From the IMG/VR virus record IMGVR_UViG_2548876853_000015: 6,725 nucleotides of DNA. One strand, written 5' to 3'. Shown piece by piece: positions 1 through 5,708 of this stretch (positions within the stretch are counted from its first letter, which is position 1; every line of letters begins with the position of its first letter). The notes below the pieces were generated by a model. The model was not told where the DNA came from, did not search any database, and saw only the letters and a list, made by a program, of their open reading frames with translations. The DNA comes from a virus (Duplodnaviria > Heunggongvirae > Uroviricota > Caudoviricetes). Made by a program: the position numbers and the translations under genes.

Positions 1-188
1 AGGCACCAGTAACTGAGAGAGTTGCGCGAATCAGTGGAAAAGCGGGCAGAGAAAATACAGGGAGCATCCGGAAGCTGAGAACGTGCCTCATCTTCTGTCG
101 GTGCAATAACGAAGTGATAGTGACGTTTCTGGCAGGAATAGAAGCGCCAGATGAATTCAGGATGAGTTGGGGTAGGGACAGTAGCCAT
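1..188 (-). CDS. Hypothetical protein, N-terminal part only (ORF continues past the left edge); lies downstream of a C1-operator-like promoter and a long structured leader
   Basis: Minus-strand ATG at 188-186 preceded by a strong SD (AAAGGAGG, 8-nt spacer); frame stays open to position 1 (about 62 codons, MATVPTPTHPEFIWRFYSCQKRHYHF...). Absent from the ORF track only because no stop lies inside the window. No family recognised. Confidence 0.5.
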   Translation of the reverse strand, partial: MATVPTPTHPEFIWRFYSCQKRHYHFVIAPTEDEARSQLPDAPCIFSARFSTDSRNSLSYWC

Positions 189-373
189 AATGGCAGCCTC
201 CTTTGACTAAGTTAAGGAGCTACCGCGTGAGGTCTCAATCTCAATGGCGGTAGCACTGACTGGGTTGAGACTACCGGCGTCAAAGGGAACCGGCCTGCCT
301 TTCGGCAGCCCAGCCAGCACTACCATTGATTTCGGAGCTAAACGCTACGTATGGCTGTGCGATGGCATGACAC

Positions 374-395
374 AAAAAAAGACGCTTTCGGCGTC
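374..395 (-). terminator. Rho-independent terminator-like hairpin on the minus strand (GACGC-CGAAA-GCGTC followed by T7)
   Basis: Plus 381-395 gacgctttcggcgtc forms a 5-bp GC-rich stem with a 5-nt loop; plus 374-380 is an A7 run, giving a U7 tract on the minus-strand RNA directly 3' of the stem. It sits about 150 nt downstream of the pacB stop and about 100 nt downstream of the predicted promoter. Confidence 0.5.
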
Positions 396-501
396 TGTGT
401 CGCCTTTGACATTATCCGGGGTCTCAATCCCGGCACCCGTTTTAATGAGGTGCCTGATAAGCATAAACCGAAAATGCCTCAAGGCGCAAGAGGTCAGGTT
501 C

Positions 502-544
502 AATGTAACATCGGTAGTTAAAAAACACAATTTATTAGAGCAAA
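502..544 (-). promoter_or_regulatory. Candidate sigma70 promoter overlapped by a P1 C1-repressor operator-like 17-mer, immediately 3' of pacB
   Basis: Minus strand 544..528 reads TTTGCTCTAATAAATTG, matching the recalled P1 C1 operator consensus ATTGCTCTAATAAATTT at 15 of 17 positions. A -35 TTGTGT (530..525), 17-nt spacer and -10 TACATT (507..502) follow on the same strand. Confidence 0.5.
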
Positions 545-547
545 TAT

Positions 548-2032
548 TCATTCATTAAGCCATGCCAGAGCTTCATCAACCTGCGCTTCGTCTTCGACGC
601 TAAGCACTTCATCCTGGGGAACATAATCCGCCAGCATAGCGAAACAATATGTATCCCAATGGTCTGGTGAGTGCAGGTTGAGTTTTTTCTTCATATCCTC
701 CTTACTCATCACCTTCCATTGACCTGCGGAGTTAATCCCTACAGGGATTTTCGACGCTTCCTCAATAGTTTCATTACCCTTATCCAGTCTCATACGACCA
801 GATTTTACGGCCTCTGCGGCTTGAACGTTGGCATAAGCACGTTTATCAAAGTACAGGCTCTTATCTTCACGGCTATGCATCTTTTTACCCCAGCGTATGC
901 GCTGTACGGTAATACCATAATACTCGTACATCAGATCCGCCGTTGCTTTACCCAGGCCATCGCCGTCTATCGCTATGGTGATATTTGGGAATCGCTCAGG
1001 ATTACATTCTGCGAAAATTTTGGCGGCAAGCTGCGTTTCTGTAACGTCTGTGTATTCCAGCATTCGATAGTTGATTACACGGCGTTTATTTCGCTGGCCG
1101 GACACCATCATGATATTGATAACGGACTTATCCCGTCCCGTACCACCAGCAACGTCCACACATGCAAGCCAGCCCCATCCTTTTGCAATCTTGACTTTCC
1201 GCCGCGTTGCACGTTCAACCTCATCACGTCCAAGAAGGAAGCCATCCTGTGATTTAGGGAATAGGCCGCGTACCTTAATCATGTACATAGGGTTATCACG
1301 CCCGCCGTACTCCGCCAGCTTCATTTTGATAAATGCTGGCGTTACCAACGGTGATTCCTCACTGTTAAGCGTGATCGCCGTATAAACGCCATCAGGGTTA
1401 CCAGGACGCTTGGCCAGTTTATGGTGTGTATCGTAGAAATAGCCGCTTGGGCGTGTAGGCTGTGACAGTAATAAGATGCGGTTATCCTGTCCGGTAAGAG
1501 CACCGGTGATGATACCGAAAGCTCTATCACTGACACCGGAGGCTTCATCGATAATATACAGAAGATGATCTGCGTGTTCACCGGCAAGAGCTTCTTCACT
1601 TCCCAGACGAAAGCCCTTCGGTACTACAGTCCATACACCTTTACCAGTAACCTCATAGAAAGCGGTTTCTGTCAGAACAAAATAATCAGCAAGCCATGGA
1701 AAACGGCTGGTGGCAGTAGCCCAGTTTATCTTGATGTACTTGAATATACCGGTCATTACCTGCTGAATTTTGTTCGCAACGATAATGGCGCGGGCACCGG
1801 GATACATGATTATGAACAACATGATCATGATAGAAGTCATGTCTGATTTCCCGGTACCGTGACCAGACGAAACAGATGTCTTGCTACCCTGTTCCTGCAC
1901 AGACTCAATAATCAGATCCTGCTGCCAGGTAGGTGTTTTGCCGAACAAAACATCAGCGGCCGCAATCCAGTCATAACGATATAGCGCCACCAGCTCGCGC
2001 CAACGTGGATCCGTTACGCAACTTCTGGCCAT
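548..2032 (-). CDS. pacB: Terminase large subunit (P1 PacB-type), 494 aa
   Basis: 494-aa ORF with a Walker-A-like ATPase motif (SSGHGTGKS). Start ATG overlaps the pacA stop by one nt (TAATG). Size and position match the recalled P1 PacB (494 aa). Confidence 0.9.
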
Positions 2033-3225
2033 TAATCATCATCCCCGTATAGCTTGCGGGTAACTTCTTCGTCTTCCTCCTCGTCTTCGTCCAGGTCTTG
2101 TTCCAGCCATGGGTCGTTTGATACACCTTCAGTATCAACATCTCCATAACCGCCTGTATCAACGATATCGGCGATTTCTTCCCTACGCTGCTCAATCCAC
2201 AATGCGGCATCGGCGCGGCGGTTGGCGGCCCGTTCTCGCGCAACTTTGTCCAGATCTTCAAGAGAAGGGCCACCGACGGCTGTTTGCCTTTCCTCATCAT
2301 CGGTATTGGTCTTAGGAGCACGCAGATCGGCTTTGATTTGCTCCAGCATCAGGGGCGGAACTTTCCCACCATGCGCCTCGATAAATTCAGCTGCTTCCAG
2401 CACTGACCAGTTATTTTCACGCTTTCGTTCGTATGCCAGCTTAACAATGCCAGCTTGCCCCATAGACAAAGCGTGCTTTTCCGCCTCCCGGCTTTCTTTT
2501 CGATAGTTATTCCGGATGCTGTAAATGGTGTTGATCAGACTGCTTATCTGCGCGGAACAGCTGTTTAGCATGCTCGCGATACGGTATTCAGGCGGAGTGC
2601 CTTCATCATCGTCTTTTTGCTGATCGCGCATTTCCTGCACCAGGCGAATACACGTATCCCTGGCGTTCTCCAGCATAAGGAGATGAGAAAGAGACTTTTC
2701 AAGAAGAGTGGTTTCCAGAACATCGGCCCCGGACCGACGCAACATAGCGCGTGCGGCCTTCCGCGCTTCAACGTTATCTATCAGGTAATCGCCAGCTTCG
2801 AATTCAAAGCGTTCACCATCATCATCCAGGGTGTCGCGTTCCAGACGATCACGCAAGGTCCGGTGGGCGCGGGTGATCACGTCATGATCATCTGAACGAT
2901 CATTTATGCGCTTATTTTGGCGCTTCGCATTCTCGACTGCGGCACTGACAACGGCATTAACTCTCTGTTTTTCCGCTATTTCAGCCGCAATATGATCACC
3001 TGCATGTTGATCATTAGAGTGATCAATGATCATGCTTTTTAGTGGCTTCCTGACTGGCTTATTTGGCTTGCGGCTGTCCGCAGTCCTGGTGTCTTCTTTG
3101 AAGGCACGGAGATAACGACGTGCGGTATTAGGGTTAAGATTAAACTCGGCGGCATACTGTGCGATGGTGTAACCACCATCTCGCGCCAGGCGAGCAAAAT
3201 TCTTCTTGTGATCGTCCCAGGTCAC
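2032..3225 (-). CDS. pacA: Terminase small / pac-recognition subunit (P1 PacA-type), 397 aa, GTG start
   Basis: 397-aa ORF with an N-terminal helix-turn-helix-like segment ([27 protein letters not shown]) and a highly acidic C-terminus. GTG start at 3225 with SD AAGGAAG 5 nt upstream and an in-frame stop immediately upstream. The pac hexamer clusters lie inside its 5' third, as in P1. Confidence 0.88.
2874..3032. other. pac packaging site: two clusters of TGATCA/G hexamers (Dam GATC sites) flanking a roughly 90-bp hexamer-free core
   Basis: Hexamers at 2874-2879, 2885-2890 and 2897-2902 (the last as cgatca, i.e. TGATCG on the other strand), then 2993-2998, 3008-3013, 3020-3025 and 3027-3032. 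This 3 + 4 arrangement over about 160 bp matches the recalled P1 pac site (about 162 bp, seven hexamers). One further cgatca lies at 2846-2851. Confidence 0.75.
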
Positions 3226-3280
3226 TTATGCTTCCTTTCGTAAAAACTCTTTTTGACGCGAGGGTAACGAAAGTCACATG

Positions 3281-3300
3281 TCAAAAGGCCCGGAACGGGC
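3281..3300 (-). terminator. Weak terminator-like hairpin directly after the lpa stop (GCCCG-TTC-CGGGC then CTTTT)
   Basis: On the minus strand a 5-bp GC stem (3300..3296 with 3292..3288) and 3-nt loop are followed by C then TTTT (3287..3283). The short stem and short U tract make this tentative. Confidence 0.3.
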
Positions 3301-3310
3301 AAGCAATCAA

Positions 3311-3763
3311 TCAGATACGTGCGGATGTGGCATTACCGTAATGACGGTGCTGACGGGCCACCTTATTGAAAAGTTGACGCGCCATTACCCAAGGCTGGTG
3401 CTCCCGGCGTTCCTTTTCGTCCTGCGTCATATAGAGTTCGTTCTGGAGTTTTTCATCAAACCGGCGCGGAGCGCGGCTACGGCGAAAGAATTCAGGATTC
3501 AGAGAGTGGATCTGAAATCTACGTGGGCGTGTACTGTCATCAATCAAAACAGACGAATACTTAGACACAGCGATAGCCTTTAAGCGCAGATAAACATCGC
3601 GCTTATCGACATCCAGATGCGGGTATTCCTTTTCAAGAATTGCTGCGAGTTCTTTCGCTGATAGAAGAGATTTAGTGCGGATCATGTAATCCGCAATCTC
3701 GTACGATGTTATTCGTGAGTGATTTATTTCCATGAAGTGGCGTCCCTGCCAGTTAAGTAACAT
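3311..3763 (-). CDS. lpa: Candidate late-promoter activator (P1 Lpa / gene 10-like), 150 aa, basic
   Basis: 150-aa ORF immediately upstream of pacA, the position I recall for P1 lpa. SD GGTGA lies 4 nt before the ATG at 3763. Assignment is by synteny and size, not by a recognised motif; an alternative start exists at 3733 (MEINHSR...). Confidence 0.55.
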   Translation of the reverse strand: MLLNWQGRHFMEINHSRITSYEIADYMIRTKSLLSAKELAAILEKEYPHLDVDKRDVYLRLKAIAVSKYSSVLIDDSTRPRRFQIHSLNPEFFRRSRAPRRFDEKLQNELYMTQDEKERREHQPWVMARQLFNKVARQHRHYGNATSARI

Positions 3764-3808
3764 CCTGTCACCTACTGATTAGCCCATGTCAACTAATCAA
3801 CGTGGAAT

Positions 3809-3850
3809 ATAATACCCTCGATTAAAGAAATAGCAACACATTAGAGCAAT
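3809..3850 (-). promoter_or_regulatory. Candidate sigma70 promoter for lpa with an adjacent C1-operator-like element
   Basis: Minus strand: ATTGCTCTAAT (3850..3840) matches the first 11 positions of the recalled C1 operator consensus (13 of 17 over the full 17-mer). Then -35 TTGCTA (3836..3831), 16-nt spacer, -10 TATTAT (3814..3809). Consistent with lpa being C1-controlled in P1. Confidence 0.45.
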
Positions 3851-3851
3851 T

Positions 3852-4895
3852 TTATCTAACGCTCGACGAGTGACTTGTGATAGCGCCGACTCCAAGCGCG
3901 TAATCAAAGAACAATCGTTGATGCATCGCCAGCCTACCGTGCGTCTTCTCCCAATTATCGCGGTCACGCTCAATATCACGCTGGCATGACTGGCACAGAG
4001 GAATTGCGTAAATGTCATGCGCGCATAATCGACTATGACGAACGATATAAGGCGTAATGTGAGCGCCAGCTCCCGCCGCTCCACACCCACAGCATGGACG
4101 GGAAGCAACAAAGTCCATGTACTCAGGTAATTTTAGCGATTGCAGTTTTGGTATTTTGAAATGCGCCATGCCAGGGTCGGAGTCAACATCCACAGGGCAT
4201 ACTTTTGCACGCATCGGCGCGGCGCGTTCTTCCATCATCTGAACATATGCTGTAGCGCGATCGTCATACGGGCGAATATCCGCCTCTTTCAGAGGTCCGC
4301 TATCCTGCGTTGCGGCTTTCATCTTATTTATTGATATACGGCAAACTTCTTCCGGCATCAGGTGCATCATGTTGCGCATGAAAGCCCACCAGCACAGTTC
4401 CTGAATACTTAAATCATGGCCATCTGAAAACCCCATTTCCTGACGGGCGACATCCAGGATCCAGTTAACGCGATTATTATGCAGCGTTTCTTTCAGCTCA
4501 TTAAAACCACGCATCCGGTAATGGTTATCGTGATGCCAGCACAACAACACCGCGCTATTGTCTCGTTCTGCGTGGACAATATGGTTGTCACACCAGCTAC
4601 GATCTGCGGCCTGGCATTGCCCCTCTTTCCTGCGCAACCACGCCACCAGCGCGTCAATTCCACCAATACGGCGAAACAGTTCATCGCTGTTAAAAAACGG
4701 CTGCAACGCCTCATTTGTTGCCATAGTTTGCTCGGAAACAACGAGGCCGTCGTCCATGTGCTCGATTAACTCACGCGGCACCGGCTCCATAATAAATTTA
4801 CGGCCAGCCTCCACCAGCTTTCTGACTTCCTGATCCACTTTGAATGTGGCGACGCCAAGCTCTTTTTGTACAAAGGGAGTAATTACGGCTTTCAC
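3852..4895 (-). CDS. Post-doc region protein, 347 aa, with a Cys/His-rich C-terminal module (possible zinc-binding HNH-like fold); function unknown
   Basis: 347-aa ORF with GTG start at 4895 (SD AAGGTG upstream). The C-terminus carries CCGCG ... H ... H ... CAH ... CQSC spacing typical of zinc-ribbon / HNH-like motifs. The position between doc and lpa corresponds to the pdc (post-doc) genes of P1; a resemblance to DUF968-type prophage proteins is a recollection, not verified. Confidence 0.65.
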
Positions 4896-5487: not shown

Positions 5488-5708
5488 TATCGGTTAACCA
5501 GTTCCTTGTTGGTGGAGTCCAGGGTGTCAAACAGGGATGCAAATTCAGCATCCAGCGCCGCTTTTTTGTAGGCTTCGAAAGTAGCCTTGCTGACAATTAC
5601 TGCTGGCTCACGGCCTCTGCGGGTGATTTCAACCTCTTCCCCGGCTTCAACATTGTTAAGCACTTCAGAAAGGTTGCCACGCGCGGTACGGAAGTTAATG
5701 GATTGCAT
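5487..5708 (-). CDS. phd: Phd antitoxin (prevent-host-death), 73 aa
   Basis: [49 protein letters not shown]... matches recalled P1 Phd. I place the start at the ATG at 5708 (SD GAGGTG upstream) rather than the track's GTG at 5714. Overlaps doc. Confidence 0.93.

Follow-up and report, generated by a model that had tools for sequence, protein, structure and literature searches.

The antisense RNA C4 of phages P1 and P7 is reported to act at the target sites a2 and b2, where it blocks the ribosome-binding site of icd and thereby ant (Citron & Schuster 1990 Cell 62:591; Biere, Citron & Schuster 1992 Genes Dev 6:2409); the P1/P7 immI region is also the subject of Riedel et al. 1993 (J Bacteriol 175:2833) and Heinrich et al. 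1995 (FEMS Microbiol Rev 17:121). In P1, the block of icd translation stops expression of ant through translational coupling and Rho-dependent polarity. The immunity RNA CI of satellite phage P4 and C4 belong to one RNA family. The immI region of P1 and P7, comprising the c4 antisense RNA, icd and ant1/2, has been summarised elsewhere (PMC8198154).

A second system that is close to the locus described here is isrK-orf45-anrP of the Salmonella prophage Gifsy-1 (Hershko-Shalev et al., 2016, PMC4825925). Its IsrK-type RNA ends in a terminator, and read-through past this gives a C4-like RNA (STnc1160/orf45'); an ORF begins at the C4 AUG and an anti-repressor gene lies downstream. The RNA can fold in alternative ways, with IsrK (a1 b1) paired to the C4 part either in cis or in trans. 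The ORF, orf45, is translated and is required for translation of anrP. In that study IsrK was cast as an activator, rather than C4 as a repressor, and the analysis covered nucleotides 1-180, thus stopping short of the a2/b2 leader and the Shine-Dalgarno (SD) hairpin (PMC4825925). In P4 immunity (CI RNA, seqA, seqC; Ghisotti, Deho and co-workers, cited in PMC4825925) the regulatory RNA is likewise processed from the leader of the operon that it controls and has target sites on both sides.

We analysed a stretch of 6,725 nucleotides of viral DNA (IMG/VR record IMGVR_UViG_2548876853_000015), referred to here as the window, in which a sequence-only reading had flagged a possible hairpin over the SD of a gene at the left edge. 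The first 600 bases of the window match E. coli plasmids of ~98 kb with 100% identity, phage-plasmid RCS47 with 99% and phage D6 with 86%, and we assign the window on this sequence evidence to a P1-like E. coli phage-plasmid of the RCS47/D6 type. P1-like phage-plasmids are common in E. coli, with matches in 680 of 5426 complete genomes. In the annotation of an identical plasmid, the order on the minus strand is the terminase gene pacA, then pacB, C4 with a small ORF annotated as 'ash family', icd and ant, followed by c1 on the opposite strand. On that plasmid icd (2906..3127) encodes 73 aa and ant (3124..4239) encodes 371 aa with ORF6N and ANT/KilAC domains, and the start of ant overlaps the stop of icd. 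The icd gene of the window starts with the ATG at 188..186 (minus strand), matches NCBIfam NF033153 (phage_ICD_like, 49.8 bits) and shares ~81% DNA identity with P1 icd in its coding part. The flagged SD is that of icd, with which an icd-ant anti-repressor operon of the immI type begins. The features of the locus are listed in Table 1. An ORF on the plus strand (244..558) was considered as a gene under the site and dismissed, as nothing supports it and its span overlaps both C4 and IsrK. A tRNA/tmRNA scan gave no match, and a scan of positions 1..700 for the sigma-70 consensus gave no promoter.

Table 1. Features of the icd leader region, given in window coordinates
Feature	Position	Strand	Remarks
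icd (host cell division inhibitor)	1..188	-	First 62 of 73 codons in the window; gene runs past the left edge
Anti-SD hairpin	192..224	-	5' arm GGUAGCUCCUU (224..214), loop AACUUAGUCA (213..204), 3' arm AAGGAGGCUGCC (203..192)
Shine-Dalgarno AAGGAGG of icd	197..203	-	Read from sequence; AUG 8 nt downstream
b2, C4 target GUCAAAGG	200..207	-	Complement of b'; shares 4 nt with the Shine-Dalgarno (203..197)
39-codon 'Ash family' ORF	207..326	-	Pfam PF10554 Phage_ASH, 28.3 bits; RefSeq: ash family protein
Spacer GCGGUAGC	219..226	-	Six 3' bases GGUAGC (224..219) = outer 5' arm of the anti-SD hairpin
a2 mini-hairpin	228..243	-	Stem UGAG (243..240) with CUCA (231..228); loop AUUGAGAC
C4 antisense RNA	243..330	-	Rfam RF01695, 75.4 bits, E 7e-14, full-length model
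IsrK-like small RNA, decoy sites a1 and b1	375..453	-	Rfam RF01394 isrK
Putative C1 operator TGCTCTAATAAATT	529..542	-	Operon start, directly past the pacB stop codon

The locus resembles the P1/P7 immI region in the order of its parts, which is a1 and b1, C4 (with a' and b'), a2 and b2, icd and ant on one transcript, and Rfam places C4 and a1b1 features in the P1 immI record in the same order as in the window. Further points of likeness are the C4 Rfam model, the location of b2 at the icd ribosome-binding site, the 73-aa Icd, the overlap between ant and icd and a 14-mer upstream. The locus differs from P1/P7 in its a/b specificities, in an a1/b1 part that is IsrK-like and has its own terminator, and in its SD (AAGGAGG here, GAGG there); it also lies between pacB and c1 and not at the position of immI in P1. 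Additionally, the window leader is predicted to hide the SD, whereas in P1/P7-type leaders a hairpin between a2 and b2 (CAGGUU/AACCUG) leaves it free. Judged at the level of sequence, the window locus has everything that would be looked for in a P1/P7 immI system. The layout of Gifsy-1 also has its likeness here, including an IsrK RNA with an intrinsic terminator directly upstream of C4, but the overlapping orf45/anrP junction is absent and the next gene in the window is icd and not the anti-repressor. P4 differs as well: CI acts by premature transcription termination and through a single complementary segment, seqB, rather than an a/b pair, and P4 is without icd or ant and without an SD-overlapping target shown. 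The hok/sok and CopA/CopT systems and the coupling of PhrS and pqsR through an upstream ORF (the last cited in PMC4825925) share with the window an SD in the 3' arm of a stem, targets displayed in loops and possible coupling, but this is a resemblance of principle only, with no sequence or family relationship.

The C4 match lies above the RF01695 gathering score of 45, and the predicted fold agrees with that of the family, which combines a long basal stem with two hairpins and leaves the a' segment single-stranded. The C4 gene is 40 nt upstream of the flagged site on the same strand. Its b' segment (CCUUUGAC, 286..279) is the loop of the second hairpin, a' is GUCUCAA (271..265) and the 3' strand of the basal stem is GCUACCGC (254..247). 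Both a' and b' are unpaired in the predicted fold, and opening them costs 0.0 and 1.0 kcal/mol, respectively. The 8-mer GTCAAAGG is found at 207..200 (b2) and at 410..403 (b1) and its complement at b'; these three occurrences, with the 8-mer and its complement counted together, compare with 0.15 expected in the window, and the number was matched by 0 of 200 shuffles. Likewise, TTGAGAC is found at 238..232 (a2) and at 427..421 (a1), and its complement is a'. The 5' half of b2 (GUCA) lies in the loop of the anti-SD hairpin and the 3' half (AAGG), which makes up the first four bases of the SD, lies in the stem.

Upstream of C4 there is thus a second copy of the C4 target sites, with a1 in a hairpin loop and a1 and b1 as exact repeats of a2 and b2. 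This part scores 60.2 bits with the isrK model (453..375, minus strand; gathering score 50) and gives a weak match of 22.3 bits to RF03163 c4-a1b1 (466..413), which is below the gathering score of 46.7. It ends with a terminator-like hairpin, with a stem at 396..380 and then a U run. The 14-mer TGCTCTAATAAATT is also present upstream of a1/b1 in P1 immI (52..65 of the P1 record L003) and in most related loci. We take it to resemble the C1-operator consensus of P1, ATTGCTCTAATAAATTT. It is this operator-like 14-mer alone that points to a promoter near the start of the operon.

Pairing between C4 and the leader was assessed from segment duplexes and opening energies; an RNAduplex prediction of the entire C4 against the entire leader was discarded because it ignores intramolecular structure. 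The predicted duplexes have energies of -9.8 kcal/mol (b'/b2) and -7.6 kcal/mol (a'/a2). Opening energies are 0.5 kcal/mol for a2 and, within the 68-nt leader, 6.7 kcal/mol for the SD, while for b2 the toehold costs 0.2 kcal/mol and the whole site 6.2 kcal/mol. Among IMG/VR relatives of the window's own family, a' and a2 switch together between GUCUCAA/UUGAGAC and GUUCCAA/UUGGAAC, b' and b2 switch together between CCUUUGAC/GUCAAAGG and CCUUUUGC/GCAAAAGG, and all a/b combinations occur. We extended the comparison to 87 distinct C4-linked leader types of the IsrK type, which are mutually related, so that the statistics overstate their independence. Over these types the mean energy of b'/b2 is -16.9 kcal/mol for cognate and -9.4 kcal/mol for non-cognate pairs, and that of a'/a2 is -12.0 and -6.9 kcal/mol, respectively, so cognate pairs win over non-cognate ones by 5-7.5 kcal/mol.

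The sequence-only reading had suggested that translation of the left-edge gene is gated by RNA structure, by an antisense partner or by a protein. Gating of the SD by an antisense partner is strongly supported by the co-variation of C4 and its targets over the 87 leader types, by the C4 match of 75.4 bits and by the complementarity of b' to 8 nt that overlap the SD. The identity of the parts, their complementarities and their co-variation are all observed in the sequences. Antisense gating of icd is the P1/P7 immI mechanism and is already known biology, and identification of the flagged site as a C4 target accounts for it without any new biology. For a protein gate, on the other hand, we found neither evidence nor a candidate binding protein.

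The complementarity on which the proposed RNA structure was built, CUCCUU (219..214) against AAGGAG (203..198) on the minus strand with a 10-nt loop, is exactly where that reading had placed it. The pairing extends further, as GGUAGCUCCUU (224..214) can pair with AAGGA-G-GCUGCC (203..192) to give 11 bp with one bulged G around a loop that reads AACTTAGTCA in DNA letters (213..204). Folding energies were compared with 200 dinucleotide shuffles of each stretch. The 23-nt core (MFE -6.1 kcal/mol) has a z of -1.73, with 11 of the 200 shuffles as good, and the 33-nt hairpin (MFE -13.3 kcal/mol) has a z of -2.64, with 2 as good. With more context the signal fades (57 nt, z -2.35, 4/200; 66 nt, z -1.29, 22/200; and 83 nt including coding sequence, z -0.62, 50/200), and in the 83-nt fold the MFE moves to GCGGUAGCU paired with GGCUACUGU. 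Measured against the refuting condition of the sequence-only reading, a folding energy no better than that of shuffled controls, the hairpin is borderline by itself and fails in the 66-nt and 83-nt stretches. The probability that the SD pairs upstream is 0.80 in the window, compared with ~0.5-0.7 when the upstream sequence is shuffled, and 31-43% of the shuffles equal it. The complementarity is real but, for a single sequence, it is within chance; such support as it has comes from relatives.

The hairpin had also been described as lying directly 3' of an 8-bp stem-loop, which is probably GCUACCGC (254..247) paired with GCGGUAGC (226..219). This helix is present in the MFE structure of the 321-nt transcript, and a shortened inner UCCUU/AAGGA helix persists beside it. 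The possibility that the hairpin is an intrinsic terminator was rejected, as no U run follows it.

DNA pattern scans of viral, genome and metagenome collections gave 10 variants of the window's own family. Within this family variation is found in a2, in the loop together with b2 and in the spacing between SD and AUG; there are two further changes, one of a loop-closing U to A and one of GGAGG to GGAGA. The stems of the hairpin are otherwise invariant in the 10 variants, which leaves the covariation test without information. Across the 87 IsrK-type leaders, pairing of the GGAGG of the SD with upstream sequence is predicted with probabilities that average 0.88 (null 0.61) and fall below 0.5 in none of the types. 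In 72 of the 87 types the partner is a pyrimidine tract directly 3' of a2 (CCUCC, UUUCC or UCUUC), which encloses a variable inner hairpin. The position that had been flagged, at -30, provides the partner in 10 types (nine window-family variants and L211, a Salmonella plasmid), a position at -28 does so in two (L231 and L237) and a position at -17 or -18 in the remaining three. In an alignment of 11 types, the usual anti-SD tract (CCUCC near a2) can pair with GGAGG in 98% of cells. We do not claim covariation for this tract: all changes in it are one-sided because the SD never varies, and two variable positions fit the a2 mini-hairpin better.

The exact helix of the window, when projected on the same 11 aligned types, is paired in 54.5% of its inner part, which is no better than slid controls. 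In the window family and in L211 the usual tract reads CCUCA in place of CCUCC, and both carry the second anti-SD. L211 has b' CCACUUGC, b2 GCAAGUGG and an anti-SD arm CUCCAUU, and it retains the hairpin (-16.0 kcal/mol, z -2.73) with two pairs that differ from those of the window: one U-A pair has become A-U and another has become U-G. The GGUAGC/GCUGCC outer stem of the window is shared by L231 and L237, and their inner stems, CCUU/AAGG and CCAUU/AAUGG, track b2. The change from U-A to A-U at the pair beside the loop-closing pair is seen both between the window family and L211 and between L231 and L237. Support from between families thus consists of this one base pair in two comparisons, together with hairpins that differ in register. 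In these predicted folds, the hairpin of the window is a minority solution found in the window family, L211, L231 and L237. Gating by this cis hairpin is plausible in view of the counterpart in L211 and the analogues in L231 and L237, but it is not the conserved solution and its z is weak in some contexts. More generally, selection seems to have favoured hiding of the SD in the IsrK-type branch, where it is achieved by at least two architectures, and here the evidence is suggestive, not conclusive.

The a2 site (UUGAGAC) is displayed in the loop of a mini-hairpin that is present in MFE folds (Table 1). The three inner pairs of the mini-hairpin are 100% paired in the 11 leader types and two of the three are doubly compensatory (GAG/CUC, GAA/UUC and AAG/CUU), a score reached by 0 of 500 shuffles. 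The spacer 8-mer between a2 and the CUCCUU arm is complementary to the 3' strand of C4 (254..247), as well as contributing to the anti-SD hairpin, and when extended by one base to GCGGUAGCU (226..218) it is complementary to icd codons 1-4, GGCUACUGU. In the 11 types the duplex between the spacer and the C4 3' strand has a mean energy of -17.95 kcal/mol for cognate and -14.2 kcal/mol for non-cognate pairs, and 0 of 20000 permutations were as good. This co-variation includes a C/U versus G/A position that is unexplained by mimicry of the C4 5' strand.

The spacer can therefore pair with the C4 3' strand, with GCUGCC past the SD or with icd codons 1-4, and the C4 gene is the 5' part of a frame that, in 85 of the 87 types, keeps the register of the downstream gene. 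One reading of these observations, which we regard as speculative and rather unlikely, is that the a2-b2 leader is no passive target but switches between several states, with C4 being both a dual-function RNA and a coding segment. Opening of the SD hairpin would then depend on processing, titration by IsrK and upstream translation together.

Taken together, we consider it probable that C4 acts in trans as the primary gate of the icd-ant operon of this P1-like phage-plasmid and that the cis SD hairpin adds a second layer. A single transcript would carry the IsrK-like a1/b1 decoy, C4, a2 and b2, icd and ant, in that order. By analogy with P1, C4 would be processed from this operon transcript by RNase P and would repress icd and ant. 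The processed RNA would pair through its exposed a' and b' with a2 (238..232) and b2 (207..200), and the b'/b2 duplex, in covering the first four bases of the SD, would block binding of the 30S subunit to icd. If the locus behaves as P1 does, translational coupling and Rho-dependent polarity would carry the block of icd over to ant. The cis hairpin would be the form that a leader fold general to the IsrK-type branch takes in this lineage; it would hide the SD and lower basal initiation at icd by about 6-7 kcal/mol. Because a2 and the 5' half of b2 sit in loops, with GUCA single-stranded in one and a2 in the neighbouring mini-hairpin, pairing with C4 could start between loops and, as from a toehold, go on to displace the CUCCUU arm. 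We infer from the predicted folds and energies that the cis hairpin may form and matter in vivo and that displacement may follow such toehold kinetics; the downstream consequences would be those of P1. The hairpin should be dispensable for C4 control as such, because the P1/P7 group has no SD sequestration. The local hairpin is thus a plausible lineage-specific extra layer on an ordinary C4 system.

A different role for the hairpin is suggested by the small 'Ash family' ORF. Its start is the AUG at the 5' end of C4 (326..324) and its stop, UAG at 209..207, falls within the anti-SD hairpin loop, 6 nt ahead of the SD and 18 nt upstream of the icd AUG. The predicted ORF corresponds to orf45 of Gifsy-1, although the stop of orf45 overlaps the start of anrP (AUGA). 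The hairpin could then be a device for translational coupling, in which ribosomes translating the Ash ORF melt the CUCCUU arm, stop in the loop and free the SD for initiation or reinitiation at icd, the SD being closed otherwise. In Gifsy-1 the equivalent AUG is used, as was seen with an SPA tag, and a premature stop in orf45 lowers anrP activation (PMC4825925). The match to Pfam Phage_ASH and the location of the window-family stop exactly in the hairpin loop point the same way, as does the fact that the C4 AUG is in frame with the AUG of the downstream gene in all but two leader types, the two being 135, 138 or 141 nt apart. The frame of the C4 AUG is open throughout in 75 of the 87 types, compared with 33 and 7 for frames +1 and +2. 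These counts come, however, from leader types that are not phylogenetically independent. No SD-like sequence precedes the C4 AUG (GCUCCGAAAUCAAUG), which is moreover buried in the 16-bp basal stem of C4. The stop within the loop is confined to the window family; in most other types the frame enters the gene without a stop, L211 has the same type of hairpin without the stop, and in P1 the frame meets early stops at -87 or -36. On balance, we think it unlikely that coupling is what the hairpin is for.

It could also be argued that the hairpin is incidental and that C4 alone gates the SD, with CUCCUU and GGUAGC being kept for pairing of the spacer with the C4 3' strand in an unprocessed read-through transcript or for the coding of Ash. 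The weak statistics for the single sequence and the invariance of the hairpin within the family would fit with this, as would the complementarity of the spacer and the C4 3' strand, which co-varies across the 11 types and on which the full-length MFE structure spends GCGGUAGC. P1 and P7 function without SD sequestration, and a purine-rich SD easily finds pyrimidine partners, as the null pairing probability of 0.5-0.7 illustrates. An incidental hairpin does not sit easily with the prediction of SD sequestration in 87 of 87 IsrK-type leaders, whichever partner is used, or with the presence of the second anti-SD in the very leaders (the window family and L211) that have CCUCA at the usual tract. 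The compensated changes in L211 and between L231 and L237 and the persistence of the inner UCCUU/AAGGA helix in the full-length MFE structure are further points against it, and we regard this explanation as doubtful. A stand-alone cis riboregulator that is independent of C4, such as an RNA thermometer or a switch operated by a protein or a ligand, is highly improbable. The existence of a hairpin that contains the SD is all that suggests it, whereas the site is accounted for by a dedicated antisense regulator whose complementarity co-varies. The region matches no Rfam family beyond C4, isrK and c4-a1b1, the stem sequence is conserved in a few lineages only, and there is no candidate for a binding protein and no architecture resembling a ligand pocket. 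The reading that we prefer remains C4 as the primary gate with the cis hairpin as a second layer.

In the literature compared here we found no description of the predicted SD sequestration in the IsrK branch, of its two architectures or of the co-varying complementarity between the spacer and the C4 3' strand. The sequestration, its architectures and the spacer complementarity are refinements of a known regulatory module. The IsrK-type branch, unlike P1 and P7, is predicted to bury the SD consistently in the leader fold. The comparative catalogue also contains at least 12 combinations of a and b specificities, which probably represent heteroimmunity types.

As the control region of the anti-repressor Ant and the division inhibitor Icd, the locus bears on the switch between lysis and lysogeny and on superinfection immunity in P1-like phage-plasmids. 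Phage-plasmids frequently carry resistance genes (PMC9600943). If the cis fold matters, it would affect the tightness and the speed with which C4 shuts off ant, which would be relevant to the engineering and the prediction of phage-plasmid immunity.

The leader has a spacer whose complement occurs in the 3' strand of the C4 basal stem, and this complementarity co-varies over 11 immunity types (the window, P1 (L003) and nine other C4-linked loci: L002, L004, L084, L089, L105, L160, L209, L211 and L212). For example, the spacer and C4 3' strand read GGCGGUGAC and GUCAUCGCC in L211, and GGUGGUAGC and GCUACCACC in L212. Mimicry of the 5' strand of C4 by the spacer leaves one C/U versus G/A position unexplained. 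The minimum-free-energy (MFE) fold predicted for the full-length transcript includes the spacer/C4 helix, which is probably what the sequence-only reading had described as an 8-bp stem-loop.

Two further pairings involve the start of icd. GCGGUAGCU is predicted to be able to pair with GGCUACUGU in icd codons 1-4, and this pairing becomes the MFE structure once 26 nt of coding sequence are added to the folded stretch. In the folding model, icd codons 1-4 are a third competitor for pairing with the 5' arm of the anti-SD hairpin. Additionally, AUGGC, made up of the start codon plus the two bases that follow it, is complementary to GCCAU in the C4 3' tail, and many other leader types have CCAUGA versus UCAUGG. 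In the MFE folds this pairing closes the entire leader into a single domain.

Positions of the features in the window and in related loci
Feature	Position	Strand	Remark
Leader spacer GCGGUAGC	226..219	minus	complementary to 3' strand of C4 basal stem
C4 basal stem 3' strand GCUACCGC	254..247	minus	complementary to leader spacer
GCGGUAGCU	226..218	minus	
GGCUACUGU	185..177	minus	icd codons 1-4
AUGGC	188..184	minus	
GCCAU	246..242	minus	C4 3' tail
Frame from C4 AUG	326..207	minus	compared across L001-L316
Shared SD to codon 5 stretch	181..203	minus	comparison loci: L002 2728..2755 and many others
Operon, c1 and 14-mers	L001 4272..5123 and 5683..5696; window 529..542		

Two relatives have unusual leaders. 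In L136 (IMG/VR contig 2879724737_000004), at roughly 70 nt upstream of the SD, the inner-hairpin and b2 region has grown into an array of approximately 10 tandem CACCAAT repeats immediately preceding AAGGAGG. The L060 leader is shortened, with unrelated sequence in place of C4 and a2 upstream of CCAACGTCTAAGGAGG and a junction immediately preceding b2. From its sequence it appears to be a naturally occurring deletion or recombinant, and it should be immune-insensitive.

In 85 of the 87 leader types, the 5'-end AUG of C4 and the AUG of the downstream gene share a reading frame, with 135, 138 or 141 nt between them. No stop interrupts this frame in 75 types, and in-frame stops occur only in the window's family, as UAG at -21, and in L039 and L088 (at -27). 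This suggests that a coding constraint (the Ash/orf45 frame) also acts on the C4 region.

The immI-like operon (C4-icd-ant) of the window's phage-plasmid (L001) is flanked directly by pacB on one side and by the c1 repressor gene on the other, and the operator-like 14-mer TGCTCTAATAAATT occurs a second time beyond c1. This is in contrast with P1, where immI and immC are far apart.

Finally, the stretch from the SD to codons 1-5 (MATIP/MATVP), AAGGAGGCUGCCAUUAUGGCUAC(U)AUCCC, is near-identical across phages that otherwise encode unrelated proteins downstream, for example Icd in the window and, in Stx phage F004, a protein of 215 aa. This near-identity suggests that the first codons of the downstream gene contain the boundary of a recombination module.
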